Notes under the pieces: generated by a model
The model's input: only the letters and a program-made list of their open reading frames with translations
What the model was told of the DNA's origin: nothing
Database searches by the model: none
IMG/VR virus record: IMGVR_UViG_3300034101_003860
Coordinates: 4,041-68,040 of that record
Length of the DNA: 64,000 nt
Strand: one strand, 5' to 3'
From: a virus
Shown here: positions 3,362 to 64,000 of the stretch, piece after piece
How the letters are laid out: each line of letters starts with the position of its first letter
How positions within the stretch are numbered: position 1 is the stretch's first letter
Translations under genes and position numbers: made by a program

Positions 3362-4110
3362 ATAATCAAATATCCTCAATTCATACCCCATGTAAACAGT
3401 GTGTTTTTGCGAAATACATAGATAATACACAAACTGACTGTTATCTATCATATATAGATCTTTACAAACAAAATAGTGTGGAAGTTCTCGAAGCATATGA
3501 TCATGATAAAGAGTTCTTTATCATTAATAATAAAAAATGTATTGGCTATAGAGAAAATAAATGGTTTGAGAAGAGGGGCATGTCTAACTCTTCGATAGAA
3601 GATAAAATAGAAGCATATCGAAAATCAAATCATGCACACTATGCTGCGATTATAAGTCTTAAAACTATAGATATAAATCAATTAAACAATATATGTGAAA
3701 TGCTTGATCATAGTGATATTAAACCAAAAAAAATTATTCTTATAAGATATCCAGATAATAAAGAGTTTCCTTATCAAGCTATAGAAAATATTTTTAAAGA
3801 AAAAAACATATCGTATCCTTGGCGTATACAAACTATGTTAGATAGTGATATGCCGCATGAACATATATTATATGATATTATTAAAAATAACAAATCTTGT
3901 AGGTTTATTTTATCCATAAATACTGATACTTCAAAAATTAATGAAATAATTAATTATGCAAATGATTTGGTTTATAATGGCCTGGGTAGCTTCTATGCTT
4001 GTGGGGACTCTACTAAAAATGTTGTATTATATAGTTCTACAGTTTTGAGGCATTCGTTAGAGACAGGCAAAGATATTCTAAATGATGAGGAGCTATATAA
4101 AATTATATGA
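3358..4110 (+). CDS. hypothetical protein (Cys-rich N-terminus)
   Basis: ORF; ATG 3358 overlaps upstream stop (ATGA) and is preferred over 3304. Confidence 0.7.
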   Translation: MNNQISSIHTPCKQCVFAKYIDNTQTDCYLSYIDLYKQNSVEVLEAYDHDKEFFIINNKKCIGYRENKWFEKRGMSNSSIEDKIEAYRKSNHAHYAAIISLKTIDINQLNNICEMLDHSDIKPKKIILIRYPDNKEFPYQAIENIFKEKNISYPWRIQTMLDSDMPHEHILYDIIKNNKSCRFILSINTDTSKINEIINYANDLVYNGLGSFYACGDSTKNVVLYSSTVLRHSLETGKDILNDEELYKII

Positions 4111-29600: not shown

Positions 29601-32600
29601 TTTTTTAGCTTCTTCTAATTGTTTTTTTGCAGCGTCTTGAGCTTCGGTAGCAGCTTTCAGTTCGTCTAAAGCAGCTTTCTCCTGTTTTTGAGCTGATTCT
29701 TCTCTGTATTTTAGAACTTTACTAGATACAGGGTCAATAGTTGATGATCCACCAAAATCTTCTCTAACCACACCGACAGCTCTTGCTTCTTCTCTTGTTA
29801 GTCCACCTTCTCTAGATTTAGCTGTATATGCTTCTTTTCTTTTTTTGCGTTCTTCTTTACTAAGCCTACCTTCTTGTTGTGGTTTTGGTTTTTTTTGTTT
29901 ATCATTTGGTGGATCTGGTGGGCTTGGTGGAAATACAAAAGATGGTCCAGATGGTGGAGCTGGTGGTAAACCAGATGGTGGAATAATTGGTAATGGAGGT
30001 TGTGGTTTAGGTGTAGATGCAGAAGTGTCTATGTCGGAAGCTTCTAGTCCAGCATATGTATATCCGGTTTCTCCTAAAGTCTTAGCCAATTCTGCCATTC
30101 CGGTTTTAGCGTCGGTTGTAGAGGTTATAATTGCCCTAACTTCTGGACTAGCTTTAGCAAAAAACTCTGCAAATAATTCTTTACCACGTAATAAATAATC
30201 ATTTATTCTATTACTACTTTCTCCAGCTGCTATAAATGCTTCTTCCATTTGTTTTCTAATTTTAGCAACCAATTCGAATTGAAAGGTTCCTTCAATTTCA
30301 CTAGCAGCTTTACCCCCACCCAACTCAAAGTCTGCTAAATGACCAGTTTCATGAGCTACTGTTTCTGTTGTTGCTCCACCTTTTTTACCGGTTATTTTTA
30401 AGCCTATAGCAGCGGCTGATTCTGAGGAGGCAGCTTGTCCTCTTGTATTTTCTGTAAAAGCTGGGGTACCACCCATTAAACTCTCGCCCGGCTCTAAATC
30501 TTTTAATCCTTTAAATTTTTTCAATAAAACTTCTCTTATTTGATCCGGTAACTGAGCCATTATTTGTGCTAAAACAGCGCCAGCTTGCTCTACATCCTGT
30601 AAGATTTCTCCTTGTGCTCTTTTTGCGTCTTTTTTGTTTTGTCCACCTTTAAAGAATTTTCTAACTCCAACACTACCCCCTTTATTTAATCCCAAAGCCT
30701 TAGTAGCTTTTTCTCTTATAACATAGCTACCTGTTGGTAGTCCTATGGGACCAATACTATCACTAGTTCCACTACCTGGCCCATTAAATACGCTAATACC
30801 ACCACCGGCAAATCCTTTCATTCCGTTGCGATCAGCTTGATTCATCTTATCTAATTTAGCGTAACCAATTTTCTTAGCTACTTTTGGAGGAACAAAAGCT
30901 TCTCCATTACTAACCATAGCTGGAACAGTGCCAGAACTTCCTCCACCAGCAAGTTTTTGTACTAAGTTTGGATTATTAATATCTGATGGACTTTTACTAT
31001 ATCCACTTTGTAATATCCATGCTGGGTCTGTAGCTGATGGCCAAGTATCTGGTGGGCCATATAATTTTTCATCTAAAAGTCTACTATTACTGACCCAATT
31101 CTCGGGGTTCAAAGGCGTTTTCTTAACATCAGATCTATTATTAAAATAGTAAGCCCATACACTCTTAGCAGCATCGCTTACTGTTCTTCTGTCTGACGTA
31201 AGCATACCACCAGCGGCTGTAGCAGCCTCCATAACAATATCATAAAGTTTTGGACCATACCCCTTTGTGGCAGAAGATGATTGCACAGCATAGAGCCCAC
31301 CTCCTATGCTATCGGCAATAACCTGTCCAGATCTTGCTGCCGCTGCTTCTCCCTCTTTTATGTATGTGGCTTGTATTCTATTTCCTGTTCTTAAAGCAAC
31401 TTTACCAAAATTCTTTTGTGTTTGGCTTGATGTAGATTGAACCGGTTCGGCTAGTAAGCCACCAGCCGCTAATTGTTCTGGATTCATTAACTTAGCGGCT
31501 AATTTATCAGAATATGCTTGTAATTGTTTGAGATTTCCTGGCTGTTGGAAATTTAATCCACTGTCACCAGATAAGCCACCCTTTGATTTAAGAGCGCCCA
31601 TTAAGTTGTAACCGAAAGCGCGTTTTCGTTTGCTGATTCTGAATTGTATTTCTGGATATTTATCAATTATCTGTTGTTTAATTTCTTCAAATCCTGGACC
31701 ATCAGCTTTGCCTCCGAAAGCAAAATTTTGAACTATATATTTTTGAGCCTCTGCCCATAATCTACTAACAGCACTACTATCATTAGTGCGCTTAGTATCT
31801 GTTGGCATCTTGGGATCGATTCCCCATGTATTAGCAGCATATCCTAAGCCACTAGGATAGTCTATAGGTCTAAGAGGATTAGCGTCATCCGAAGAAATTC
31901 CAATCCCTAATTGTTTAACAATTTCTTCCAGACCATAACCTTCCATAGCAGCTATTGCTCTGTTTGAAGACTGATTAGCAGCACTTATATTTTGTGGTTC
32001 TCTATAAAGATAACCCAATTTACCAGCACCTGTAACGGCTCCGATATTTTCTAAATTATCATCTACTAAAGTTTCCAATTCAGCAAGATTATCTACTTTA
32101 TTCAATCCTCCACTAACTCCTGTGATCTTACTCTCTGGTATCGGTAATCCAAGAGAGGATAATTTTGATGCTAAAAGCGGAGCATTACTTTGTGGTCTGG
32201 CTGTTAGTACTCGTATTTTATCCATTAATTCTGGATAATCTATTAATCTTTTTGCTAGTTCTTTACCCAATAGTGTTAGCTTAGAGTTTTGCAGCGAGTC
32301 TCTAACTTTTTTCAAGTCACTATAGTCTTCATTTTTCTTACCAGGAATATCTGCATCTTTAACAAGAGTTTCATCAAAATCAAAAGCTAATGGACCAATC
32401 GCTCCAAATATATCTGTATATTGAAATTGTTCTGCTCCTCTGGCTGGCAACCCAGCAATATCTTGTTGTATTTTAGATACAGCGTCAGCGTATCGTGTTG
32501 GTAAACTTTTACGAACTAGCTGTGTTAAATATTTTGTGCTTCCATCCTTACCTAATAATTCTTTTGCACTAGTAATATTAGAGTATCCAAGTTCTCCATT

Positions 32601-35600
32601 AGGTCCATATAAACTAGCTAGTCCAAACTTAAGACCTTTTCCCGTAGCAGCTTGTTCATTGAGTTGTTTTTGTCCTGCTTGTTGTGCTTTCTCAGCCTCT
32701 TTTTTTTCTTCTGCTTGTTTTAATAAAGGTTCAATAATTTTTTCTAATAAGGAACCATTATCTAAAGATTTTAATGAGGGAAGTGTTAATAGTTGTTTCG
32801 CGGTGCCTACTTTTGGCATCACCGCTCTAGCTTTTGCTACGGCTTTTTGAATTTCATCATAAGAAACATTTGCAGTAATATAACCACTACCACCAACTTT
32901 TTGTATTCTATCAAGAATTTGTTGTGAAATTTTTCCAACAGGAGTTTCTACACCACCAACTGATCCGGCCATAAATTTTTGTACTAATCCGCCATTAGCA
33001 AAATTTTTAGATTCTGGAATAGCTTGTCTCATAGCCCAAGCAAAATGAGATGCTCTACCAGTAACGGTTGGAAGAATATCTTTTTGATAATCTTTAGCTT
33101 CTTGTATAGCATTGCTAGCTTTTACAATTTTATCAAGAACGCTCTTGCGAAGTTTCTCGTCTTGAGTTTCTGATAACTCTTTTTCTAAAGATTTTCTGAA
33201 AGCAATAAGTCTCTCTGGAATATCTGGAATTTCATCTAGTAATGGTTTACCAGATATAAACTCTCCACTTTTAGCAGATTGTTCAAATCGTTTTAAGAAT
33301 CCGCCTTTTGTACCTGAATCTTTTTGATATCTGGCTATGGTTGCTTCTAAAACTTCCTTCGGTGCTCGCGGAGCTTGTTCAGCATACTTTAACAAGACAT
33401 CCATAGGGACATTTTCTAAGCTAGATGAATCAACTCCGCCTGCTGTAGCAACCATTTTGCGCAAAGTTCTGGCGTCCATCTTTCTATGTACAGAGGCTTT
33501 AATTTTTTGTTCAGAGGCGAACGGAGATATTTTTTCTCTCCAAAAGCCTTTTTTGCCTAAATAAGTTGTTAATTCAGATTCTAGTTCTGGTACTATTCTT
33601 TCTTGTGGTACTTCAACAAACTCATTCCCGATAACCATACCAGCACCAGCAGTACTAAATATATCATATGCTTGATCCTTAGCGTATCGTATTAGATCTT
33701 CTGTGCTAAGTTTATAGATTTCTTCTTGTGTTAATTCTTTGAACTTGCTACGAGCGCCCCGGGCTCCAGTTTTACCTCTCCCTTTACCGCTAGGAACATT
33801 AACGCCACCGACCGATCCAGCCATAAATTTTTGTACTATCCCACCCAAACTTAATGGAACATCAAAAGATGTATCTTCTCCTTCTTCAAATACTACTGCT
33901 CCGAAATTTTTTCTATTTTTTTCTCCCCCTGTAGCGCGATCTAGATATTTCTGAATTTTAGGTTGAAATAATTCTGGAGTTGCTCGATTTTTAGATAGTC
34001 TGGCATCTGTTGGCAAACCTATCAATTTGGTATTATCAAAAGCAGGAACATTACCTGGCCAATTACTATAATCGAAAGTTCCTCCAGCGCTTTCTTTAGT
34101 ACCTCTTGGTTTAGACCTTCTAAGAGTTTGTTCTAATAAAGAACCTTTAACACTTCTATATAATCTAAAGTTTTGAATAGAGGATTTTGTTTCATCTATT
34201 CCTTTTTTACCAGGAGGTAAGAATTGTGATTTACCTTTATTTACTATGTCTGCTAATCCTTGGTCAAGATAATCTGTATTAATAAATCCTGGCTCAGCAT
34301 AATCGACAAAGACTTTTGCCTTACCTCCTTTAGCTAGTTTATTCATTTTAGCTAAATTGCCTCTTCCGTATTTTTGAGCAGCTTGGTTGTTGATCACAAC
34401 CTCTCCGGGTTCTAGCATAGCAGGAACCTTATCTCCCTTTCCACTGCCTGGAACAATACCCCCCTTATTAAATCCTAATACCTTACCCCCACCTCTCAGA
34501 GTTGATGATCCTCTAGATCTCATGGTACTATCTAAACTTTGTACTGCTGATGTTAATGTTTTTAGAGCATCTGTATTTAATCTAATAGCATCTGCTGCTT
34601 TTGCTGTTACTTCTGCTCTTTGCTTCTCTTTAGCCCCACTTAAACTTTCTCCAATATTTTGACCAGCACCACCAGCGCCACCACCCTTTTTCAGACCGCC
34701 AAAAAAACCTGTGGCAAATTGCCCGATGGCGCTTACTCCTTTAATAGCTCCAAATACAGCTAAGATTGGCAATATTGGCTTAAATGCGCTCGCAAGACTG
34801 AGCAAGCCGCTAGTTAAACCAACCACGATTTTGAAAAATCCTTGAAAAACAGTGCTTTGCCCAACCTCACGAATCAAACCTAAAAATTGTTCACGAACTT
34901 TTGCTATTTGATTAGCTAAGCTTTGTTGTGCTTTTATCTGAGCGTCTGTTAAGCTGCTTTGTCCTCTTTGAGCAACACCCAAAGCTTGTTGTGCTACTGC
35001 AAATTGTTGAATTAAAGGAATGACTTTACCGATTTGTCTAAATCCACCAAGTTCTTCTACTATTGTTGAAAATCGAATATCTCTGGGATCTAATTGATTA
35101 AGAGCATCACTAAGTCTTCTAATAGCTTCAAACGGACCAACGAACTTGCCTTCAAGATCTTGTAGTTCCACACCAAATTGTTTTAGTTGTTGGATAGTGC
35201 TACTTCTTTGAATTCTTGTAAAAATTGTTCTTAAGCCGGTAGCAATAGTCTCTGCACTTTCACGAGTAGTTTGACGAACACTAGTAAAAATAGCAATAAA
35301 CTCATTTAGAGCATCGGTACCTTCGCTAACTCCTTTACTAGCACTAGCGAACACACCACCAGTACGCTGAATAGCAGCAATAATATCTCCAGATTCAACA
35401 GCGAACGCTGCTGCAACAGCATTGATACTACCTAGTGCTGCTTCTAGCTCTCCTGCTTCTAATCCGAACTGTCTAATCGCAGCAATGGCACCTTCTGTGG
35501 TTTTAGTTAGGCTTTCGAAAGATGGAGCCAGTTCTGTCTTAGCCAAAGCTTTAAGCGCTATTCTGGTTTCTTCCACACTCAAACCCGCCTGGGCTAATGT

Positions 35601-36212
35601 TGAGGTAACTTCTAATAGTGCTGTGCTACTCACTCCCAAACTTATTGCTAAATTTGTAATTTCGTCTTGTAGAATTTTTACACCCGTTGCTCCTCGACCA
35701 GTAACTTGTTGTAGTCTCACAAGTTCTTTGTCAAAATTTATAAATTCTTTAAAAGCACCAGTGACAGCATTTGTTAAAGCAAATATTCCTGTAGTAACCA
35801 CAGAGAACGCCGCAAAACGACGAATAGCAAGAGCACTCTGCTTACCAAATTCTTCCATTTCTGTTCTAGCTACTTTAATGTCTTTAGCAACCTTTTCAAT
35901 ATTTTGAGAAGTTTTTCTAACGCCTCCAGCAGCAGCATTACTAGATGTTTGTACTGATCCCAAAGAACTAGACATATCTCTCAATGTTTGATTTAGACTA
36001 GTGGCATTACTTCTTACACTAACTAATACTTTATTCATAGCAGCAAGTCTATTAGTAGCTGTATCTATAGACTTCAGTGCTTTATTATCTATATTAAGAG
36101 AAATATCAGTATTAACAGAACCTAGCTGTTTTCTAATTTGACTAACAATCGGTTTAAGATTTGTTGGTCCTCTTAAATTAATTTGTGCAGTAAGGTTGAA
36201 AGGTGATGCCAT
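23643..36212 (-). CDS. giant tape measure protein with internal enzyme-like cargo domains
   Basis: N-terminal TP901-type TMP core (TTRESAETIATGLRTIFTRI), Ala/Gln/Lys-rich helices, Gly-rich hydrophobic segments; internal HAD, GNAT and HExxH motifs. Confidence 0.9.
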   Translation of the reverse strand: MASPFNLTAQINLRGPTNLKPIVSQIRKQLGSVNTDISLNIDNKALKSIDTATNRLAAMNKVLVSVRSNATSLNQTLRDMSSSLGSVQTSSNAAAGGVRKTSQNIEKVAKDIKVARTEMEEFGKQSALAIRRFAAFSVVTTGIFALTNAVTGAFKEFINFDKELVRLQQVTGRGATGVKILQDEITNLAISLGVSSTALLEVTSTLAQAGLSVEETRIALKALAKTELAPSFESLTKTTEGAIAAIRQFGLEAGELEAALGSINAVAAAFAVESGDIIAAIQRTGGVFASASKGVSEGTDALNEFIAIFTSVRQTTRESAETIATGLRTIFTRIQRSSTIQQLKQFGVELQDLEGKFVGPFEAIRRLSDALNQLDPRDIRFSTIVEELGGFRQIGKVIPLIQQFAVAQQALGVAQRGQSSLTDAQIKAQQSLANQIAKVREQFLGLIREVGQSTVFQGFFKIVVGLTSGLLSLASAFKPILPILAVFGAIKGVSAIGQFATGFFGGLKKGGGAGGAGQNIGESLSGAKEKQRAEVTAKAADAIRLNTDALKTLTSAVQSLDSTMRSRGSSTLRGGGKVLGFNKGGIVPGSGKGDKVPAMLEPGEVVINNQAAQKYGRGNLAKMNKLAKGGKAKVFVDYAEPGFINTDYLDQGLADIVNKGKSQFLPPGKKGIDETKSSIQNFRLYRSVKGSLLEQTLRRSKPRGTKESAGGTFDYSNWPGNVPAFDNTKLIGLPTDARLSKNRATPELFQPKIQKYLDRATGGEKNRKNFGAVVFEEGEDTSFDVPLSLGGIVQKFMAGSVGGVNVPSGKGRGKTGARGARSKFKELTQEEIYKLSTEDLIRYAKDQAYDIFSTAGAGMVIGNEFVEVPQERIVPELESELTTYLGKKGFWREKISPFASEQKIKASVHRKMDARTLRKMVATAGGVDSSSLENVPMDVLLKYAEQAPRAPKEVLEATIARYQKDSGTKGGFLKRFEQSAKSGEFISGKPLLDEIPDIPERLIAFRKSLEKELSETQDEKLRKSVLDKIVKASNAIQEAKDYQKDILPTVTGRASHFAWAMRQAIPESKNFANGGLVQKFMAGSVGGVETPVGKISQQILDRIQKVGGSGYITANVSYDEIQKAVAKARAVMPKVGTAKQLLTLPSLKSLDNGSLLEKIIEPLLKQAEEKKEAEKAQQAGQKQLNEQAATGKGLKFGLASLYGPNGELGYSNITSAKELLGKDGSTKYLTQLVRKSLPTRYADAVSKIQQDIAGLPARGAEQFQYTDIFGAIGPLAFDFDETLVKDADIPGKKNEDYSDLKKVRDSLQNSKLTLLGKELAKRLIDYPELMDKIRVLTARPQSNAPLLASKLSSLGLPIPESKITGVSGGLNKVDNLAELETLVDDNLENIGAVTGAGKLGYLYREPQNISAANQSSNRAIAAMEGYGLEEIVKQLGIGISSDDANPLRPIDYPSGLGYAANTWGIDPKMPTDTKRTNDSSAVSRLWAEAQKYIVQNFAFGGKADGPGFEEIKQQIIDKYPEIQFRISKRKRAFGYNLMGALKSKGGLSGDSGLNFQQPGNLKQLQAYSDKLAAKLMNPEQLAAGGLLAEPVQSTSSQTQKNFGKVALRTGNRIQATYIKEGEAAAARSGQVIADSIGGGLYAVQSSSATKGYGPKLYDIVMEAATAAGGMLTSDRRTVSDAAKSVWAYYFNNRSDVKKTPLNPENWVSNSRLLDEKLYGPPDTWPSATDPAWILQSGYSKSPSDINNPNLVQKLAGGGSSGTVPAMVSNGEAFVPPKVAKKIGYAKLDKMNQADRNGMKGFAGGGISVFNGPGSGTSDSIGPIGLPTGSYVIREKATKALGLNKGGSVGVRKFFKGGQNKKDAKRAQGEILQDVEQAGAVLAQIMAQLPDQIREVLLKKFKGLKDLEPGESLMGGTPAFTENTRGQAASSESAAAIGLKITGKKGGATTETVAHETGHLADFELGGGKAASEIEGTFQFELVAKIRKQMEEAFIAAGESSNRINDYLLRGKELFAEFFAKASPEVRAIITSTTDAKTGMAELAKTLGETGYTYAGLEASDIDTSASTPKPQPPLPIIPPSGLPPAPPSGPSFVFPPSPPDPPNDKQKKPKPQQEGRLSKEERKKRKEAYTAKSREGGLTREEARAVGVVREDFGGSSTIDPVSSKVLKYREESAQKQEKAALDELKAATEAQDAAKKQLEEAKKRKQNLGKSSTQTERQTAKDAVKAAETQLGETQSRKSQATNKVAEARQKAVDVEEAKKAATVSTNTPDANKEKAKSDLQKTADQEVADAMEQVRKNVTQKYQDILQTEVDNIRAFYATRIAAAGKNSKEEANLIQQQRSAIADTKASIEAAQTGEIKTEQAKVPEQIATSKRQQVEQLRETKARAADPFYDAKKAADASATGMSGMPKVNEQIRQEQQQFFAYKAEKAGKTVGGFRQDLTKQIGTQAYAIGQERQFAKTEAQTTFAGRARELQGVDVAKATAEGATGEEASKVQNIIEEFAASLRKVDPNLGLGEARKAATKLAEGLAKGDQSVKQIIEANSELQAVFNKTFTETQNLDEAFKRVAEAAGLSEQSLRAEISPQKIKEQQFISSKEGQRFGGLAEFAPGLTEKFSKTRIGKGLGAGADFISGKGGKLSRAFAGAGGFTGIGAGVATGAEALKQFLPKSVTSDPNTAGALGALGGAGSGAAIGAQLGSFAGPIGTLIGGVGGAIIGGIQGFFSGKNQAILTNALENIAKTTGDLDQAFKKLESEASAVNLENAQKAFGDVLAAGQPIEDLAFSKTGVESIGSTFTGGVDKVSTGFAEGDISKIVLGGLQTAFGATGGGLLVDYFSAPSEAQRTEAIGSMVGGAGQRNESAARLAESGLKFKSTEEVGKIFDNIKTGTGELNPITEQYIQGALKAAEAANGTKQLTAEQTKSITVQAKERAALDAYMKKRKESGATDEQIAKEISSNRGAAQKEGEEALKTQGELAAKQDLLAKATKQVAIATESLLDVYRRIGAEAQRYSDELDQFSSDVNALVSGLGGDTSTREVNRTNEQVLGNVSAYSTEEVRAAANATAGFLGGTPEAQNLANQAVGQKLVQDQIPALLRTAGKDTDAQDNALEAVKNLLSSQGLEGSAIDTILGDLKNELAKGQGLSEAELQDTVTKSFSTVGKGLEQLQNVTKKYNDTLQQARKFQADYNKAILESGSYLRKADQVRLNAELDLAKALGRSPSLEELNKPFDAEISSLTGGLVQSGDLAAGASSDPTAIAAAITSAEKRKQAIEKASPELTAAGANIPAGPAGDPLRQQLNQAQLENIQAVGELTVASAEGRQALEKLANDGTKAANALGKIQEQQQAIEGFADFAQKVFTAEPQELAKMELQAVALNAAQVSGPEFFESRQNRQNAFAGLEQERGFMTKDEYNQTRASLIRKSFESQINPATGQAFKGTDVVKNIAGKDITLDELTKRLEGGIDETDPNVIAYREATEIQAQANIELGKIYQTQSEILAAAMMDLGKKLTEDFPNIVANAAANAQTDAQTKPEVKPEKKPPEPSYAETRVSEGQAQIDQGQTLLNEAKKDRDKLGYFSSSEEVRAVNTKERKAKQMIAGGKETVSQFGPLAAKDKAVREMETSLEAQRAYWAKAEEKTKQTEANKVKAQDAIDRAVQTREGGRPVATDGSGRVAAGTVAKPSAQVVIPSQTKVEVAGVPKAPIQAPPAPGTEQPVKDKATRQKEEAKKAAAAEIKNLEPLIADRQKEIAKRENKLKAARIAAMGAGTLKDKSGQVVNPNVLGAQSSLDASKEALVVQQAELAKQKQILAEQSKTAEEKQGQVTSQPSPLDAAQVSGPVAEGKTDTEVKSATEGVQTSVAQLQSPLDLVAQMATAALQSGSIYTHDVGLQERLDVLLESMNTLGSLASGEPGLAVSDAKVLEALNNLQAPFAALEQMAIASLSEGINTKDATLAAIASVFTPAINQVSAGVSALLAPINAISPVIATALDVIATPIKAIAGAFGVEMSTGQALQTAMGPAGALGSYVAGNAVGAIQNMATPQPQVSDKPITPNRLELANANAANRVVSAPVPVTMPPQASFINQQTTTQQIPSTTPTEGQLLTIDPTSIEKLNTFNTNFASYVDKLVTFEFPTIPDVIEMRGNHVVDVRISGAAAFEGLKKDFETMMQSEIKKAMGKIWDKTGGAMGASPNS

Positions 36213-57492: not shown

Positions 57493-57536
57493 CTGCCAAA
57501 ATGGCAGCGGGGCCGCGATTTCTGCCAAAATGGCAT
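57493..57536. repeat. paired palindrome unit 5
   Basis: Copies at 57493 and 57522. Confidence 0.95.
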
Positions 57537-57615
57537 ACAAAGATTTTCTTATTTTTTTTCTTGACAGTGCCGATCTATATGGTATCCTTAGAGCATCACC
57601 CCAAAGGAAACGATA

Positions 57616-57951
57616 ATGACCTACAACGGCTATTCTAACTACGAAACGTGGGCTGTTCAGTTGTGGATCGACAATAGTGAATCGTCCAGTGCGTTCTGGC
57701 ATCGGCTTGCGGAAGAGATTTATAATCACGCAGCATCCGAACAGGCTCATTTTAGCAAGGTCGAGGATGCTACTTGTATTCTGGCCGAAAAACTCCGCGA
57801 TAGTTACAACGGCGGAATGGAAGCGCTTTTGAGTGATGGTAACGCAACCGGAACAGTTTGGGCCGATTTGCTGAACGCTAGTGTTTGTGCTGTTAACTTC
57901 CATGAGATTGCCAAGAATCTGATGGAAAGTGTTGTAGCAGTTCCTGCTTGA
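57616..57951 (+). CDS. conserved phage early protein (YNGYSNYETW family)
   Basis: AAGGA RBS; YNGYSNYETWAVQLWIDN...VNFHEIA. Confidence 0.75.
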   Translation: MTYNGYSNYETWAVQLWIDNSESSSAFWHRLAEEIYNHAASEQAHFSKVEDATCILAEKLRDSYNGGMEALLSDGNATGTVWADLLNASVCAVNFHEIAKNLMESVVAVPA

Positions 57952-58015
57952 CAAACGATTTTCTTGTGGTATGCTAGTTTTATTGAGTGAAGGATTTCTA
58001 AACGAAAGGGTTTTT

Positions 58016-58423
58016 ATGAACGACACGATTCTTTTTGGTTTGATTTTTGCTGGTGTGGCCGCTGCTATTTGTGCGTTTTCGTGGTTTCATGTTTATCGTG
58101 GAGTGCATGATAGTCTTACGAATGCTAAGGTTGGTCAGGTTTATAACTTTAAGTATTTGCAGCCTGTGACTGATGTGCCTGAGCGTTTTATGGCTAGGGT
58201 GGTTGGTGTTCAAACTTTTACTGAGGATTATCTTAGTCGTTTGAATAGTAAGAGTCGTTATCGTCGGAATGATCCTGAGTTTCAGCGTAGTAAGCATCTT
58301 GTGACCGCTCAAACTTTTGATGGTAAGATTAGGAACTTTTATGCTGAGCGAACCACGGATGTTCGTCGCCCCCTGTTGGGAGGGGTACTCTTTAAGAGTG
58401 GAATGGCGAGCCTCTTCTTTTAG
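58016..58423 (+). CDS. membrane-anchored protein with WYL/SH3-like domain
   Basis: N-terminal TM helix; YNFKYLQP...HLVTAQTFDGKIRNFYAERT. Confidence 0.6.
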   Translation: MNDTILFGLIFAGVAAAICAFSWFHVYRGVHDSLTNAKVGQVYNFKYLQPVTDVPERFMARVVGVQTFTEDYLSRLNSKSRYRRNDPEFQRSKHLVTAQTFDGKIRNFYAERTTDVRRPLLGGVLFKSGMASLFF

Positions 58424-58435
58424 GAGGTTCCTCGT

Positions 58436-58479
58436 CTGCCAAAGTGGCAGGCGGGCCGCGAAAACTGCCAAAATGGCAA
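58436..58479. repeat. paired palindrome unit 6
   Basis: Copies at 58436 and 58465. Confidence 0.9.
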
Positions 58480-58526
58480 GATATTTTCTCACTTGACAAC
58501 CTTCTAACAGCCGATACAATAAGCGT

Positions 58527-58673
58527 ATGATTACATCAAACTGCTACTCTTGGAAAGTTTTTCGTTTTAGCCATACATTTGTTGGTTATGTTATGGCTAG
58601 TTCTCAATATGAAGCCAATATTCTTGCAAAAGAAAAGTATGGCGATTTCGTTTGGATTGAACGAGTTCGCTAG
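58527..58673 (+). CDS. small hypothetical protein (48 aa), probably leaderless
   Basis: ATG 7 nt after the -10 box TACAAT; no SD. Confidence 0.55.
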   Translation: MITSNCYSWKVFRFSHTFVGYVMASSQYEANILAKEKYGDFVWIERVR

Positions 58674-58676
58674 TCT

Positions 58677-58748
58677 GGCCCCGTAGTATAGTGGTTAGTA
58701 CACTGGGCTTTCATCCCAGAGACTGGAGTTCGATTCTCCACGGGGCTA
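58677..58748 (+). tRNA. tRNA-Glu (TTC)
   Basis: Cloverleaf: GGCCCCG/CGGGGCT, CTGGG-CTTTCAT-CCCAG, TGGAG-TTCGATT-CTCCA; no encoded CCA. Confidence 0.92.
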
Positions 58749-58750
58749 CT

Positions 58751-58880
58751 AGAGAGAACAGGAATCGTAAACCCGCCACTCTCAAAATCCAATGAGTCCA
58801 ACCAAAGGATTTGTGGCTATGGCTACCCTGTCTCTTCTAATCCTTCGGATTTGGTTAGCGTGGTGTAGTCAGCGAGAAGC
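58751..58880 (+). ncRNA. candidate small structured RNA after tRNA-Glu
   Basis: GAGAACAGG/CCTGTCTC, GCCAC/GTGGC, AAATCC/GGATTT nested stems; no ORF. Confidence 0.45.
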
Positions 58881-58942
58881 ACAAAAAATATTTTTTCAAG
58901 AAACCCTCTTGACAAGCCGATAATAGATAGTACAATGATTGA

Positions 58943-59383
58943 AGAACAAGTGAAAACTTGTTGGTTATGTCGGGCCGAGTAGCCGGTAAAAACGGTAGTT
59001 GATGTCCTAGGAAACGTCTTCTACAATCGGTCCTAACAATACAAACATCCGTGGGTCAAGCCAGACTAGATTGGGATAACCACTTCGATTATAGATATAC
59101 ATACCGTGTTGATCACTGGTCAAAAACTGTATATCGTTGCCTGTTGGGGTTATACAACGGGCTAGAAGTCCAATCTATGAGGGATAGCGTCCTCACCACG
59201 GCCAATACAACCAGTAACCGTTCCCAAGAGCCAGACCAGAGCGGGTCTTATGTGCTAGCAATGCCCGCTTTGCAGGGAGGATTTCCGTGGACGGTTTCCA
59301 CCAGTTTTTACCTTGCTCCAAGGGTTCATAATATCGGAGTATTGGTGGGTTATAGAATCGGGGCGTAAACGATTCGCTGGTTG
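58943..59383 (+). ncRNA. candidate large structured ncRNA (~440 nt)
   Basis: Own promoter (58909-58936), no credible ORF, more than 12 complementary segments in nested multi-branch arrangement. Confidence 0.75.
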
Positions 59384-59423
59384 ACAAAATAAAAACACAG
59401 TGTAGAATACGAGAGTAAGACAT

Positions 59424-59510
59424 GGCGGGCGTAGCGTAATGGTAGCGTGTGTAAAATCGGTGGCAGAGATCTACTGTCTACACGAAATGGTTCGATTCCA
59501 TTCCCCGTCC
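59424..59510 (+). ncRNA. tRNA-like element with enlarged anticodon arm
   Basis: D arm (GCGT-AATGGTA-GCGT), T arm AATGG-TTCGATT-CCATT, GGCGGG/CCCGTC acceptor; 25-nt insert in place of the anticodon loop. Confidence 0.65.
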
Positions 59511-59513
59511 CTA

Positions 59514-59670
59514 GTCACCAACGAAACTCCGATTCATTCGGTGTGCTACCCTCCATAATGAGATCATAGCCTATATTGGTGACACAATACAACTCTGCTG
59601 ATAGTTTCCTTAGAAATAAGGTTGAATAAATATAGTGCCGAGTGCTTATTCGTAAAACTATCAGTGTGTC
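59514..59670 (+). ncRNA. candidate structured RNA(s) after tRNA-like element
   Basis: GTCACCAA/TTGGTGAC stem; CTGATAGTTT/AAACTATCAG stem enclosing CCTTA-GAAA-TAAGG and GAATAA/TTATTC. Confidence 0.5.
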
Positions 59671-59713
59671 GGCCAAAATGACAGGCCGAGCGGCCGATCT
59701 GCCAAAATGACAG
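59670..59713. repeat. paired palindrome unit 7
   Basis: Variant copies (..AAATGACAG) at 59670 and 59699. Confidence 0.9.
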
Positions 59714-59784
59714 ATATTTTTTTGTGGACTTTGCGTATTGACAAGCCGATAATAGACTATAGAATACGAGCATAGGAGAGAAAC

Positions 59785-59958
59785 ATGAATCACGACCCAT
59801 ATTGGACATTCCCACAGTTTCCTGAGAATAATACTTGGGAGATTCGCTATTTGTGTTGGCGAGCGTGTGGCGAAACCAGAGAACACAGCACACGACTCGC
59901 TAATGAGGGACGTATGCCTGCTAACTGGTGGATGCTTTACAGAGATGATGGAAGGTAA
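59785..59958 (+). CDS. small hypothetical protein (57 aa, not in ORF track)
   Basis: AGGAG RBS; MNHDPYWTFPQFPENN... Confidence 0.65.
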   Translation: MNHDPYWTFPQFPENNTWEIRYLCWRACGETREHSTRLANEGRMPANWWMLYRDDGR

Positions 59959-59959
59959 A

Positions 59960-60160
59960 ATGAGAATAAGTAAAAAACAAATATCAGATGCTCTTAGTAT
60001 TGATAGTGACGATCTATCGTCAAAGGATATGGGTATTGCATTATTGAACATTGAGAGTATACTTGATAGCGTTGCTGAAAACCTTGATGATGATTTTGAA
60101 TCTGCGGCTTTGGGCGATGCTTCTAATCTAATACAAATGATAAGAGAGGCATTGACTTGA
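59960..60160 (+). CDS. small acidic helical protein
   Basis: ATG just after upstream stop (MRISKKQISDAL). Confidence 0.6.
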   Translation: MRISKKQISDALSIDSDDLSSKDMGIALLNIESILDSVAENLDDDFESAALGDASNLIQMIREALT

Positions 60161-60187
60161 CGATAAAGAATGGTATAATGGTGACAA

Positions 60188-60304
60188 ATGAGAATCTTCC
60201 GTAAAATAATTCTGTTCTTGCCGTCTTTGACCATGTTCTTTCTGGCATACTTTAGTTTTATTTGTGATAACGAGGCTACACACTTTAGTTTTAGGTGGAA
60301 ATAA
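60188..60304 (+). CDS. small hydrophobic peptide (38 aa)
   Basis: ATG shortly after TATAAT; TAATG coupling to next ORF. Confidence 0.4.
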   Translation: MRIFRKIILFLPSLTMFFLAYFSFICDNEATHFSFRWK

Positions 60305-60396
60305 TGACCGTTAATGAGTTTATTGACGAGTTTCTTGATCCAAAGTTTCAAGAAATATTGAAGATTGTGGAACAGGTTTTGGAGGAAAATAAATGA
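60304..60396 (+). CDS. small peptide (30 aa)
   Basis: Coupled on both sides (TAATG, ATGA). Confidence 0.45.
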   Translation: MTVNEFIDEFLDPKFQEILKIVEQVLEENK

Positions 60397-60617
60397 ACTG
60401 GCATTATGATAATCCTATTAGGGACCGTAAGTATCTTTGTTGTGTAAAGGGATACTCTGAACCTATTGATCTTCTCTGGAATAAAGAGCAGGGAGGGTGG
60501 GGTGATTGGTGGCATGGTGAATATGACGATGGTTTGGCAGAATGGGATCAGTTTGACAATGATCTAGTGGTATGCTATATTGGTTTTGATGAGATTCCTA
60601 TGCCGGAGGGTTGGTAA
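60393..60617 (+). CDS. Trp-rich small protein (DUF551-like)
   Basis: GGAGG RBS; MNW...P...YLC...W...VVCY..IPMP. Confidence 0.65.
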   Translation: MNWHYDNPIRDRKYLCCVKGYSEPIDLLWNKEQGGWGDWWHGEYDDGLAEWDQFDNDLVVCYIGFDEIPMPEGW

Positions 60618-60871
60618 TGGAATGGCTTAGTTTTTTTGGTTATCGTCGCCCTATTAATGGGCAAAAGGTTTATTACTTTGGGCCAGATATTGGGGTATGG
60701 CGGGGAAGATATGAGATTCATAGAGATGATCCTGTGAGTGAACATATTCTTATTTGTGAAGAAAGTCCCGGTCTTGTGGATCGTATGGATGCTCCGTGGT
60801 GGATGCCGTATGAGGGACAACCAAAACCAAAACGACCAACTACCGATTATCCAGAGGATTACCCGCAATGA
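60617..60871 (+). CDS. Trp-rich small protein (DUF551-like)
   Basis: MEWLSF..RRPINGQKV...WWMP..P. Confidence 0.65.
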   Translation: MEWLSFFGYRRPINGQKVYYFGPDIGVWRGRYEIHRDDPVSEHILICEESPGLVDRMDAPWWMPYEGQPKPKRPTTDYPEDYPQ

Positions 60872-61026
60872 TTACTATTTCAACCGATGAGTTTCGTCGT
60901 CTTATCGGCCATATTCAGGAGTACCTTGACAATCCTAATCTACCTAATACAATGGCGAAGATTGCTATCGACACCCTAAAGATGTACGATATTGAAGCCT
61001 ACGAGGAAAATGCAAAAAATGAATGA
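60868..61026 (+). CDS. small hypothetical protein (52 aa)
   Basis: GAGG RBS, ATGA overlap. Confidence 0.55.
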   Translation: MITISTDEFRRLIGHIQEYLDNPNLPNTMAKIAIDTLKMYDIEAYEENAKNE

Positions 61027-61192
61027 AGATCGTGAAAAGGCTATGGTTACTATCATCAACTTTTTTAACTCTCGCATGGGTGCGATGAGCAAGAATAATG
61101 TAGATAAGGCTAAAGAGTTGATCTCTACTCATGAGATTGCGGCTTCTGAACTGGTGGATAAATACGTGAGGCTTGTCTATGAAAACTCTTAG
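61019..61192 (+). CDS. small hypothetical protein
   Basis: MNEDREKAMVTIINFF; overlapping operon. Confidence 0.6.
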   Translation: MNEDREKAMVTIINFFNSRMGAMSKNNVDKAKELISTHEIAASELVDKYVRLVYENS

Positions 61193-61304
61193 TGATATTT
61201 GTCCGTGTGGGGCGTGTGATGTTCTGGTGTGGAAGTATGATGATTATGGATTAATCTGGAACTTCTGCCAGCAATGCCATTGGTGGTATATCGACAACGA
61301 TTAA
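61179..61304 (+). CDS. small Zn-ribbon protein (41 aa)
   Basis: GAGG RBS; CPCGAC...CQQC. Confidence 0.5.
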   Translation: MKTLSDICPCGACDVLVWKYDDYGLIWNFCQQCHWWYIDND

Positions 61305-61348
61305 CTGCCATAATGGCGGTGGTCGCGGCCGAACTGCCAAAATGGCAG
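61305..61348. repeat. paired palindrome unit 8
   Basis: Copies at 61305 and 61334. Confidence 0.9.
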
Positions 61349-61400
61349 AATATTTTTCTTATAGAACGGTATTGACAGTGCCGATACTAATGGTATACTT

Positions 61401-61535
61401 AGGGAAACAATGGGCGGGGACAACCACAATGATATCAAAGAAGGTTGTCTGAAATGTCCGTCGAGTATGGCCCAAGCCGACATTGTTTTTCCTAATCCTC
61501 CGGATTTGGCTGGGGTGGCTGTAGTCAGCGAAAGT
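61401..61535 (+). ncRNA. candidate small structured RNA
   Basis: Own promoter (61372-61399); AAACAATG/CATTGTTT closing stem, GACAACC/GGTTGTC inner stem; no ORF. Confidence 0.55.
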
Positions 61536-61591
61536 TTAAAGATCTTGACAAGAGTTGGTCGATAGAGTATACTCTAGTTATAGGAGAAAAA

Positions 61592-61816
61592 ATGGATATG
61601 AGCGTTATAGCAAGATTTGAGGCTCTGGACAGACTTAGTGAATCTCTTACAAAGCAACAGATTGAAGATTTACAGATAGTTATTAAAAACACCAAAGAAG
61701 AACTAGAGATTTGTGAAAACTGTGGAGATAGTTGGGTTGGAAATACAGAAAAAACTCTAGAGATGCTTGCTAACAGTTTAAACTTTCAACCAGACTATCC
61801 TGAATACGACTATTGA
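61592..61816 (+). CDS. hypothetical protein
   Basis: AGGAG RBS, own promoter. Confidence 0.7.
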   Translation: MDMSVIARFEALDRLSESLTKQQIEDLQIVIKNTKEELEICENCGDSWVGNTEKTLEMLANSLNFQPDYPEYDY

Positions 61817-61847
61817 CAACTGATAGCCGATAGAATATAGTATAAGC

Positions 61848-62273
61848 ATGAAACAGAAACCACTATACGGCGAAGTTCGTTTTCACCTTTCTAACGGTGA
61901 GCATTATATGCACTGGCAAGTTAAGGTTAAGCAGGGTGGAAAAACTGTTGATGTGTATTATTATGACCCCAAAGAATATCAGTTGGAAATGAGGGGTTGT
62001 AAGTTGTGGAACCGGCCGAATAAGGCTAAACAGGTATTTGAGGCTGGTGTGCATGATGTTAGTGGGTGGGTGCGGTGTGAAGAAGTTATGTTGAGGAAGG
62101 ATTTTCATCCCGCTCTACCTATTGACAATCTTGAGAAGTTGTTTTATAATCCACTTCGTGATCCACACTGGCGACGAGAAAGCGACAATAACGAGTTCGT
62201 TTGGGACGGTAGCGAGTATGCTACTCTTCTGACTAACGGCAAACAAGTTTACATTTTGGAAGAAAGGATTTAA
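61848..62273 (+). CDS. hypothetical phage protein, probably leaderless
   Basis: VRFHLSNGEHYMHWQVK; ATG directly after -10 box. Confidence 0.7.
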   Translation: MKQKPLYGEVRFHLSNGEHYMHWQVKVKQGGKTVDVYYYDPKEYQLEMRGCKLWNRPNKAKQVFEAGVHDVSGWVRCEEVMLRKDFHPALPIDNLEKLFYNPLRDPHWRRESDNNEFVWDGSEYATLLTNGKQVYILEERI

Positions 62274-62644
62274 TGATGATTAATCTGCAACTGAGCGTTC
62301 GTGAGGCTATGGAACTTGCTTTCTATGCTAGGGAGGACATTAGAGAGCGTATCACTCAGGCTTTTGAGGTGGCTTTGGGTGTGAACCAGCGTTGTACTGT
62401 TACGATCACTAGGGGTATGAGTTTGGATAACCGTATCCCGTGTATCAAGGCTATTCGCCAGTATACTGGTTGGGGTTTGAAGGAGAGCAAGGAGTGGACT
62501 GATGATCTGGTTGGTGGTTGGAAGGGCGATAGGTTCGTTCCTGCTACTCACCACACCAACAGCATCACTCTCAAGAATCCTGAGATGGCGGAAAATCTGC
62601 TGCGTGACCTGACCACTTTGGGTTGTGAGGGTTATCTCTCATAA
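62273..62644 (+). CDS. protein with ribosomal bL12 (L7/L12) C-terminal-like domain
   Basis: NRIPCIKAIRQYTGWGLKESKEWTD matches the bL12 K.VIK.VR..TGLGLKEAK motif. Confidence 0.75.
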   Translation: MMINLQLSVREAMELAFYAREDIRERITQAFEVALGVNQRCTVTITRGMSLDNRIPCIKAIRQYTGWGLKESKEWTDDLVGGWKGDRFVPATHHTNSITLKNPEMAENLLRDLTTLGCEGYLS

Positions 62645-62688
62645 CTGCCAAAGCGGCAGGCGCCGCGGCCGATCTGCCAAAATGACAC
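62645..62688. repeat. paired palindrome unit 9
   Basis: Copies at 62645 and 62674. Confidence 0.9.
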
Positions 62689-62872
62689 CCAAAAAATATT
62701 CACGAACGGCTGTTGACTTGCCGATACTCTATGGTAGAATGATAGCATCACACGACAAGACGCCAACCGATCACGACAACACAAAAGTTCGGATTGGCTC
62801 TTGACAAGTGATGATTGGGATGATAAGATACGTTTGTTCGGTTTGATTAACACTAACTTGGAGAGATTTACC

Positions 62873-63127
62873 ATGAAGAAGTTTTCGTTTGTTGTTGATA
62901 TTGTTGCTACTGATCTTGACCGTGAGGTTGTGGTTGATTCGATTGGTGATTGTCTGCGTGATGCTCTGCCGTCCGATGTTCATGCTAACGTCAAGGCCGG
63001 TGAGGTCAAGGCTTTTAGCGAGCAGGGTTATAAGGTTTGGCGGGCTAGGGTTACTGGCGTGACTGCCAAGGCTGCTGGCGATGCTCACAATAGCAAGGTC
63101 GAGCAGGAAGTCGAGGCTGTTGCCTGA
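62873..63127 (+). CDS. hypothetical protein
   Basis: GGAG RBS before MKKFSFVVDIV. Confidence 0.7.
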   Translation: MKKFSFVVDIVATDLDREVVVDSIGDCLRDALPSDVHANVKAGEVKAFSEQGYKVWRARVTGVTAKAAGDAHNSKVEQEVEAVA

Positions 63128-63150
63128 GCCTAGCATATCTACTATAATAT

Positions 63151-63191
63151 CCGATAGACCGCTAGTGGCGAACTGGCGGCTATCGGTTTTT
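63151..63191 (+). terminator. intrinsic terminator-like hairpin
   Basis: CCGATAG-A-CCGCTAGT-loop-ACTGGCGG-CTATCGG-TTTTT. Confidence 0.7.
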
Positions 63192-63193
63192 AT

Positions 63194-63265
63194 GGCCCCA
63201 TAGTTAAATGGATATAACAACTGCCTTCTAAGCAGTTATTGGAGGTTCGATTCCTCCTGGGGCTA
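63194..63265 (+). tRNA. tRNA-Arg (TCT)
   Basis: Cloverleaf: GGCCCCA/TGGGGCT, ACTGC-CTTCTAA-GCAGT, GGAGG-TTCGATT-CCTCC; no encoded CCA. Confidence 0.93.
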
Positions 63266-63270
63266 TTATC

Positions 63271-63314
63271 CTGCCAAAACGGCAGGCTCCGCGGCCGATC
63301 TGCCAAAATGGCAG
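63271..63314. repeat. paired palindrome unit 10
   Basis: Copies at 63271 and 63300. Confidence 0.95.
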
Positions 63315-63387
63315 CTATTTTTCTTCAAGTTTTTTTGCTTGACAAGCCGATATTCTATTGTAGAATCAGTAGCACAGGAGACATAAA

Positions 63388-64000
63388 ATGAAAACAGCAG
63401 ACGGTAACGATAAGTTGGGCAAGGGTTGCATTGTGGTTTCGCGTCCGGTTGGCGATACTTGTCCGTCCGATTGCGACTATCTCAATAATGGCTGCTATGC
63501 TGAGGCTACGGAAAATCAGTATAAAAATGCTCGTACTGCCGGGTTTGCTAATCTAGTCACGGAAAAGCATAAAATCCGTGCTATGATTCTTGACGCTAAG
63601 AAGCGTAAAAAGTCTATTCGCTGGCACGAACGTGGCGACTGGTTTCTCAATGGCGAACTTGACCTAGACTATGTTGCTAATGTAACGTGGGCGTGTGAGA
63701 GTATTCTTGCCGATGGTGATAGTCTGCCTGATATGTGGTTTTATACCCATATTTATGATAGTCGGCTTGTTGCACTGGAAAAGTATATGAACGTATATGC
63801 TAGTGTGCATGATGATAATGATATGGGCGAGGCTATGGCACAAGGCTTCAAACTGTTCGCATGGTGCGATAGCGATATGAAAATCGCCCCGAAGCGTCCA
63901 AAGAGTAAAGTCAAGGCGGAAGCATGGAGGAAAGCGTTGCCCAAACTTGTTGTGCTGAATGGTAGCAAGTTTGTAACGTGTCCGGAAATCCGTCGTGGTC
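63388..64000 (+). CDS. GP88-like Cys-motif protein (radical-SAM-related fold), runs off window
   Basis: AGGAG RBS; GNDKLG..TCPSDC......CYA, IRWHERGDWF, WFYT. Confidence 0.7.
   Translation, partial: MKTADGNDKLGKGCIVVSRPVGDTCPSDCDYLNNGCYAEATENQYKNARTAGFANLVTEKHKIRAMILDAKKRKKSIRWHERGDWFLNGELDLDYVANVTWACESILADGDSLPDMWFYTHIYDSRLVALEKYMNVYASVHDDNDMGEAMAQGFKLFAWCDSDMKIAPKRPKSKVKAEAWRKALPKLVVLNGSKFVTCPEIRRG

Follow-up and report, generated by a model that had tools for sequence, protein, structure and literature searches.

Positions 58943-59383 of a 64,000-nucleotide stretch of viral DNA (the window; positions 4,041 to 68,040 of IMG/VR record IMGVR_UViG_3300034101_003860) specify a non-coding, promoter-driven and strongly structured RNA beside phage tRNA genes, as a sequence-only reading had proposed. 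That reading took the RNA for one ornate molecule of about 440 nucleotides (nt). The stretch is instead a series of three stem-closed modules, M0, M1 and M2, with A-rich linkers that end in AATACAA. Judged by comparative evidence, which supports them well, M1 and M2 are a real and new pair of structured phage RNAs, and both are very probably genuine families of structured non-coding RNA (ncRNA). In the best reading of the whole, to which we give a probability of about 0.5, they would be tRNA-shaped, stable small RNAs that are matured with the tRNAs and whose loops bind a partner.

Modular Organization of the Stretch

Folding of 58943-59383 gave -143.3 kcal/mol (z = -2.71), and none of 100 shuffles folded as low. 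The translation of an open reading frame (ORF) at 59051-59368 was used as a mere probe and retrieved 23 related loci on uncultivated viral contigs of 11-233 kilobases (kb). When the region was compared with these loci by blastn, conserved blocks were found at 59036-59089, ~59160-59210, 59203-59303 and ~59350-59388, and the sequence between the blocks was variable or missing in the relatives. The 5' part (58943-59035) was retained in few loci only.

Two window segments that directly adjoin each other, 59513-59587 and 59588-59672, have homologues in L005 and L021 that flank the core on either side. In L006, L007, L008, L014 and L021, the two halves of the core, M1 and M2, are separated by unrelated structured pieces of 100-220 nt. 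Each piece has complementary strands at both ends and is set apart by (C)AATACAA, which is located at 59038, 59204 and 59586 in the window. In another locus (L152), a solitary 96-nt M2 (L152:11504-11599) has a promoter of its own in front of it and a tRNA 9 nt behind it. Because the pieces are self-closed and the blocks separable, the supposed 440-nt RNA resolves into M0 (58945-59033), M1 and M2. Stem-closed modules of other families, bounded by AATACAA, were located between M1 and M2 at L006:2830-3000, L007:2860-2970 and 3140-3225, L008:3125-3240, and L021:3130-3345.

Structure and Conservation of M2

Module M2 (59211-59381, + strand) scored 164.8 bits with model R1. Its helices are P1 (59211-59214/59377-59380), P2 (59216-59222/59290-59296; 7 base pairs, bp), P3 (59237-59245/59264-59272), the optional P4 (59298-59303/59343-59348) and P5 (59355-59359/59371-59375), the last closed by the invariant loop GGGGCGTAAA. 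M2 measures 90-185 nt, with smallest natural forms of 89-96 nt, and carries one optional and one exchangeable arm. Its invariant scaffold comprises CCAG-UA, the 7-bp helix P2, CGUGG, UUAUAG, the P5 hairpin with loop GGGGCGUAAAA, and GCUGG.

A 17-base pattern taken from the most conserved part of M2 retrieved 52 viral stretches, 6 of them by chance and 46 true; together with the window, the true ones amounted to 34 distinct sequences. Model R1, which contains the five helices, gave 59 matches over 65 sources (605 kb), one per source and one in the window, several sources being overlapping stretches of one contig. In the alignment of 37 distinct sequences, 95.8% of the cells were paired versus 25-48% when the partners were slid. 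Changes on both sides were found for 19 of the 31 pairs, with strong covariation in P3, P4 and P5, and not one of 500 shuffles reached any of the measures. An unbiased sample was obtained from 41 loci chosen by the M1 pattern, where 24 further M2 matches (33-119 bits) were found. The scaffold was kept in these matches, with the P5 loop reading GG(G/A)(G/U)CGUAAA, the domain inside P2 occurring in at least six unrelated versions, and P4 again optional.

The linker CCAATACAA (59202-59210, + strand) places ATACAA directly 5' of M2 in the window. The same word is directly 5' of M2 in 45 of 57 distinct contexts, and 9 more have a near variant. The 3' neighbors in the 57 contexts were an RNA module or tRNA (22), a T run followed by a promoter (17), a Shine-Dalgarno (SD) sequence with ATG (16) and a promoter (1), and one context was cut off. 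With such varied elements on its 3' side, M2 is not tied to one downstream gene.

For bacterial genomes, a gapped M2 pattern gave at least 120 stretches, of which 80 were taken as loci. R1 scored two of the 80 (27.7 and 19.2 bits), the second match being partial and in apparently coding sequence. Both scores came mostly from letters fixed by the pattern and were therefore judged to be chance, so that no evidence of M2 in cellular genomes was found among the 80 bacterial loci scored, in a scan that is incomplete.

L313:6523-6760 contains a tandem of two M2 copies that differ in inner type and are separated by 11 nt. The commonest M2 inner loop (59273-59289) reads GGGAGGA-UUUCC-GUG, with an SD-like word at start-codon distance from GUG. 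A mini-ORF of 9-14 codons after GGAGGA-GUG was considered by eye and rejected, because it was inconsistent across homologues and the word is missing from other M2 forms.

Structure and Conservation of M1

Module M1 (59049-59201, + strand; 101.5 bits with model R2) is a cloverleaf-like four-way junction, and its length among homologues is about 135-155 nt. The closing helix CGTGG/CCACG (5-6 bp) is directly followed by a mini-hairpin GTC..GAC of 3-4 bp. A long branched arm, TAGATTGG/CCAATCTA (8 + 5 bp), sits where a tRNA has its anticodon arm and branches into two hairpins, one variable and one with the conserved loop GGG(G/C)TTATAC. The 3' hairpin, which adjoins the closing helix and is TGAGG..CCTCA in the window, occurs in two forms: a 6-7 bp stem with a triloop, as in the window, or GGGGG-UGCGAUU-CCCC. 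The latter is one base off a tRNA T arm and is found in one M1 subtype only, not in the window's copy.

A regular expression for M1 returned 27 distinct homologues, from which RNAalifold recovered the four-way junction with 14 of 31 pairs compensated. The M1 pattern was used to fetch 64 stretches, and model R2, with 37 pairs, gave 80 matches over 87 sources, corresponding to 60 distinct sequences. In the alignment of these 60, 95.6% of the cells were paired versus 37-42% with the partners slid, and 24 of the 37 pairs had changed on both sides, a count reached in none of 500 shuffles. ACAAAC(A/T)T precedes M1 in 38 of the 60 distinct contexts, and a promoter lies within 60 nt upstream in 21, ending 8-24 nt from the module.

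The sequence TTGACA-16-TATAGT is located inside many M1 relatives (e.g., L105:8829-8967 and L109:9027-9164), where it overlaps the conserved-loop hairpin, and an internal promoter is possible in some of them. The window's M1 has TTGCCT with a long spacer and no good internal promoter. A kissing contact between the loop of the mini-hairpin and that of the 3' hairpin was considered by eye and dropped, as it was inconsistent across homologues. The idea that M1 and M2 are copies of one motif, which share GCCAGAC before a hairpin, was also discarded, since R1 matched only M2 and R2 only M1; the GCCAGAC letters common to the window's M1 and M2 are not conserved in M1 relatives.

Helices Proposed from the Single Sequence

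The positions listed by the sequence-only reading were all correct, and covariation supports its helices CCGTGG/CCACGG, TGAGG/CCTCA, GAATCG/CGATTC, TAGATTGG/CCAATCTA, GCCTGTTG/CAACGGGC and AGAGCGGG/CCCGCTTT. The pairing GATATACA/TGTATATC is present but belongs to a variable hairpin that only a few close relatives share. Other pairings had to be given up. The 5' half of CCAATAC/GTATTGG is the conserved linker and its 3' half lies in the optional P4, absent from several homologues, while GCAGGG/CCTTGC, whose 3' half also falls in P4, is not conserved. GTGGA/TCCAC competes with the conserved P2 helix AACCGTT/GACGGTT and is lost where P4 is absent. The two supposed pseudoknots, AACCAG/CTGGTT and TAACC/GGTTA, turned out to be the ordinary nested closing helices P1 and P2 of M2.

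In the 5' part, the hairpin AACAAGT-GAAA-ACTTGTT (58945-58962, + strand) appears in the minimum-free-energy fold and has one pair compensated in two of five sequences. It is followed by the small junction of module M0 (58972-59033, + strand), closed by GGGCCGA/TCGGTCC, which has few relatives and weak support: 6 of 28 pairs were compensated in the five sequences, mostly by one of them. The hairpin, the junction helix and GTAG/CTAC are thus present as proposed, but weakly tested by this sample. The single-stranded linker TAACAATACAAACAT (59034-59048, + strand; AATACAA at 59038) leads from M0 to M1.

Coding Potential, Strand and Copy Number

The ORF at 59051-59368 (+ strand) starts with GTG and has 105 codons. 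Its frame was open in 5 of the 60 distinct M1 homologues and interrupted by stops in the other 55, and the module lengths modulo 3 were spread 17/18/25. No SD precedes it, in line with the earlier statement that the stretch holds no SD-led ORF. From these comparisons, the ORF is judged not to be a gene.

G-U pairs are frequent on the + strand, as in M2 columns 12/85 (UG in 33 sequences) and M1 columns 167/179 (GU in 36). On the opposite strand they would turn into A-C mismatches, and the structure is therefore assigned to the strand that the promoter transcribes. All five related genomes rated 100% complete (153-233 kb) contained a single M2 and, next to it in every case, one or two M1.

An Rfam scan of 14 related loci showed that they are full of tRNAs, with dozens nearby. 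Within the tRNA-rich regions, three of these loci carry a pistol ribozyme (L137:8925-8987, L104:3618-3680 and L106:9010-9072; 52-55 bits, exceeding the cut-off), and one, at L129:7380-7564, carries a group I intron whose 50.4 bits just reach the cut-off. Neither a pistol ribozyme nor a group I intron was found in the window at the Rfam gathering score.

Search for Known RNA Families

The window was compared with Rfam 15 twice, once under gathering scores and once under relaxed filters with E <= 10, and only tRNA-Glu and a sub-threshold tRNA-like hit at 59425-59509 were returned. Scans of the array of one relative (E <= 10) and of the 14 related loci returned only tRNAs, pistol and one group I intron. 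In the window there was no Rfam match to transfer-messenger RNA (tmRNA), RNase P RNA, group I introns, 6S, known riboswitches or small ribozymes. GOLLD (RF02032, gathering score 150 bits) was absent from the window under both of these thresholds; in the five related genomes it matched nothing at the locus, and two matches of at most 14.5 bits lay elsewhere in one genome. ROOL (RF03087, 99.1 bits) matched neither the window nor, at gathering score, the 14 related loci. It was also found in none of the five related genomes, a null result that is weak alone, as the ROOL control was silent in every control genome.

M1 and M2 are therefore new relative to Rfam 15. The earlier suggestion of a short or divergent GOLLD or ROOL fails, as neither family matched at E <= 10 in the window or in the relative's array. 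The other suggestion, a new large ncRNA, stands as regards novelty but not as regards one 440-nt ornate RNA in place of self-closed modules. No description of these RNAs was found in the literature, supplementary material not being covered.

Comparison with Known Systems

GOLLD and ROOL each form a homo-oligomeric, RNA-only cage. They are like the RNAs described here in being phage-encoded, non-coding, highly structured and adjacent to tRNA genes. In contrast to them, the units here are small (90-185 nt) and self-closed, can change order or occur singly, and are not connected by long-range helices, and there is no sequence or structure match. According to the available part of a recent account, the 3' region of GOLLD is universally conserved and its 5' region less so, and its linker sometimes contains tRNAs (PMC12286853), and the constant 3' part, variable 5' part and embedded tRNAs of the present array resemble it in kind only. 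The structured-RNA candidates that Fremin et al. (2023) collected from IMG/VR, the same data source, number 8,495 and include tRNA-like and gene-upstream ones, objects of the same kind as M1 and M2; no motif like either is named in the available portion of that paper (PMC10690425). Either module may already be among those 8,495 candidates as an unnamed entry.

The tRNA cluster of phage T4, a myovirus of Escherichia coli, also encodes the species 1 and 2 RNAs of about 140 nt, which are stable, co-transcribed with the tRNAs and matured from the same precursors. Our likening of M1 and M2 to them refers to this general description only. Known tRNA-like processing elements are the plant mitochondrial t-elements and mascRNA, and an artificial tRNA scaffold is used for stable RNA expression. 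M1 and M2 may resemble these in having a closing helix stacked on a T-arm-like hairpin and a foreign arm in place of the anticodon arm, and they share with t-elements and mascRNA the location in transcripts with genuine tRNAs. They differ in that they fail the tRNA model and that a T-loop-like sequence is present in one M1 subtype only.

The Transcription Unit and Its Parts

The predicted promoter, TTGACA-16-TACAAT, was confirmed as a sigma-70-type promoter with an 11/12 consensus match at 58909-58936 (+ strand), from which the unit is driven. Its -35 and spacer are found again at 59738 and 63339 in the window, and it is kept together with M0 in three relatives (L012-L014). A tRNA-Glu gene (58677-58749), called by Rfam and as a tRNA, is given as 194 nt upstream of it. 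A second promoter, TTGACA-16-TAGAAT (59381-59408, + strand; 11/12 match), overlaps the last base of M2 with its -35.

Downstream, a tRNA-like gene whose anticodon arm is enlarged by 25 nt (59425-59509, + strand) scored 26 bits against a cut-off of 29, and ARAGORN was silent on it. It is followed by module Y (59514-59583, + strand; folding z = -3.29), a three-way junction closed by GTCACCAA/TTGGTGAC and followed by ACAATACAA, and by module Z (59597-59665, + strand), for which folding predicts a three-way junction closed by CTGATAGTTT/AAACTATCAG. In relatives, homologues of Y are located directly 5' of M1, the second arm being swapped with compensation, and homologues of Z lie 3' of M2, with compensation in the closing helix in L121. 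A pair of CTGCCAAAATGGCAG-type hairpins followed by a T run (59670-59722, + strand) is the likely end of the transcription unit.

Between 58943 and 59670, the weak GTGGA hairpin of M2 was the only terminator-like site, and transcription from 58909 therefore most likely continues to ~59713. The 3' boundary once placed at 59383 is the end of M2 only, where the second promoter overlaps, and 58943-59383 is probably the 5' part of a non-coding unit of ~58943-59713. M1 and M2 of relatives occur in two lake RNA libraries, the assembled contigs of which align with 59064-59185 over 137 nt (2 differences) and with 59181-59382 over 200 nt (8 differences, 2 gaps).

The tRNA-like gene has counterparts at L005:2736-2813, L008:3498-3572, L137:12092-12175 and L121:13970-14072, and in this set the acceptor, D and T arms are kept and the anticodon arms vary in length and sequence. 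One relative's gene is called by ARAGORN with a four-base anticodon, and another is a normal-looking tRNA-Glu. The CTGCCAAAATGGCAG hairpin (6-bp stem, AAA loop; families D1-D3) occurs in 19 copies between 53585 and 63317 of the window, most of them paired at 29-nt spacing and then followed by a T run and a TTGACA promoter. Its sequence is kept far better than a plain terminator needs, and the hairpins may serve in termination, as binding sites for a protein that recognizes RNA or DNA, or in both ways.

Proposed Function and Alternatives

We propose that the transcript would be a string of independently folding modules, each with its own terminal helix, joined by A-rich linkers ending in AAUACAA. 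Host tRNA- or RNA-processing enzymes, those that mature the neighboring tRNAs, would cut the modules out at the linkers; whether the modules are processed into separate RNAs is, in our judgment, evenly balanced. The modules could then persist as stable, tRNA-shaped small RNAs with their ends locked in a helix stacked on a hairpin, as in tRNA, the terminal helices supplying both stability and processing signals. The invariant loops and junction would bind a putative protein or RNA partner and act in trans. Single-copy conservation and the change of downstream elements from genome to genome argue against a generic cis leader, and we tentatively favor a trans-acting binder over such a leader, at somewhat less than even odds.

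Several points weigh against the reading as tRNA-shaped small RNAs. The tRNA model (RF00005, >= 29 bits) scored neither M1 nor M2 at E <= 10 in the window or in L134, a locus with a T-loop-like hairpin in its M1, and ARAGORN was silent on M1 and M2 of the window. In M1, the T-like hairpin is separated from the closing helix by 1-2 unpaired bases, CCA is missing, and the "acceptor" is only 5-6 bp long. In M2, P1 and most of P2 are nearly invariant and are thus supported by conservation and not by covariation, and in the first sample the search pattern itself predetermined part of P2. The alignments behind the M1 and M2 counts were fitted to the models, which favors the structures. The RNA-library contigs are assemblies of relatives in which DNA carry-over is possible, and they do not prove transcription, ends or abundance. 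Finally, an SD follows the module at a distance of 8-10 nt in 16 of the 57 M2 contexts (at 35 nt in two of the 16), an arrangement that is also compatible with a cis-acting leader.

These 16 contexts keep alive a rival explanation that we consider possible but doubtful, in which the modules are cis-acting leaders for 5'-end protection, for translation control of the next ORF, or for terminator read-through, as with the put RNA of phage HK022, which makes RNA polymerase read through terminators. It would account for the promoters close upstream in 21 of 60 M1 contexts, for SD and ATG within ~10-35 nt in the 16 M2 contexts, for GGAGGA followed by GUG in the commonest M2 inner loop, and for the 19 copies of the conserved hairpin in the region, paired and before T runs. 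However, each genome has one M2 despite dozens of cassettes of a promoter and a small gene, and the downstream element varies by genome and is often a tRNA, an RNA module or a new promoter. Downstream of M2 the window has no ORF ahead of the terminator, and the SD-like loop is missing from other M2 forms. An improbable alternative would make M2, or else M1, a catalytic RNA of a new kind, self-cleaving or not, by which the polycistronic transcript is cut at its AAUACAA linkers, like the small ribozymes beside phage tRNAs. Invariant junction and loop nucleotides do adjoin covarying helices, the conserved linker abuts the 5' end of M2 in 45 of 57 contexts, and pistol ribozymes (3 of 14 loci) and a group I intron (one locus) share the tRNA-rich regions. 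No ribozyme family of Rfam 15 matched at E <= 10 in the window or in the array of the relative, however, and the most conserved-looking M2 inner loop is replaced wholesale in other forms.

We regard as still less probable that the whole array is one multimeric, GOLLD- or ROOL-like ornate RNA with a conserved 3' M2, a variable 5' part and embedded tRNAs. A unit of ~770 nt beside phage tRNA genes, with a variable upstream part and a constant M2, would recall the conserved 3' region, looser 5' region and linker tRNAs in the available description of GOLLD (PMC12286853), but both family models were silent at the locus, the order of the modules differs among relatives, each module is self-closed and M2 occurs alone. 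The least probable explanation, conservation at the DNA level (promoters, operators or an origin) or a small protein from the ORF at 59051-59368, is largely refuted. The TTGACA-16-TATAGT sites inside many M1 relatives and the ORF length of 105 codons speak for it; against it stand the compensatory changes and the strand-specific G-U pairs, the lack of a good internal promoter in the window's M1, and a frame that is closed in 55 of 60 M1 homologues and has no SD. A catalytic role, a GOLLD-like assembly and a role at the DNA level are thus all less likely than tRNA-shaped small RNAs matured with the tRNAs.

A bolder extension of the tRNA-shaped reading, and an unlikely one, is that M1 and M2 are a conserved, single-copy pair of phage tRNA mimics. 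They would be excised by tRNA-maturation enzymes of the host, and their invariant loops would capture a host factor of translation, RNA decay or anti-phage defense. If true, the pair would be an RNA-only takeover or counter-defense device of a widespread lineage of large lake phages. To our knowledge, the non-tRNA RNAs of phage tRNA islands (GOLLD, ROOL and the stable RNAs of T4) have been without a known function for decades. With compact sizes (90-185 nt, M2 down to 96 nt) and clear structures, M1 and M2 are small enough for direct biochemistry. A fixed scaffold with exchangeable arms, beside tRNA-like genes with replaced anticodon arms, suggests that the tRNA fold may serve as a carrier for other RNA functions.

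Phage and Genome Setting

The window, taken from one viral contig of 68,040 bases, encodes a large terminase, a fragment of DNA polymerase III alpha and an ORF of 4189 residues (23643-36212, - strand). This ORF has a phage minor-tail (tape-measure) domain in residues 183-376 and would point to an unusually long tail. With the terminase, the polymerase fragment and the tape-measure ORF together, the window is part of a large tailed phage, which we read as an uncultivated siphophage of lake water. DNA near-identical to it is contained in lake-water metagenomes, and at least eight contigs carry both M1 or M2 and a terminase 78-86% identical to that of the window. Among 50,697 records of cultured phages, blastn found no match for 58850-59520, and no terminase was more than 25% identical to the window's. 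With no cultured relative by DNA or terminase, there is no clue to the host.

The G+C content is ~0.33 over bases 1-52,000 and 0.44-0.48 from ~52,700 to the end of the window. The G+C-rich part is read on the + strand and contains small ORFs, few of them longer than 100 codons, and two tRNA genes. Promoter-like TTGACA-16/17-TAnnnT sites numbered 46 in 57,500-64,000, versus 13.0 expected. This part may be an early or RNA-rich region, may have a different origin, or may reflect a chimeric assembly. A 47-nt element is present in two copies (58829-58875 and 61484-61531; 83% alike), located 30-60 nt 5' of the promoters at 58909 and 61545, and related loci contain the element several times.

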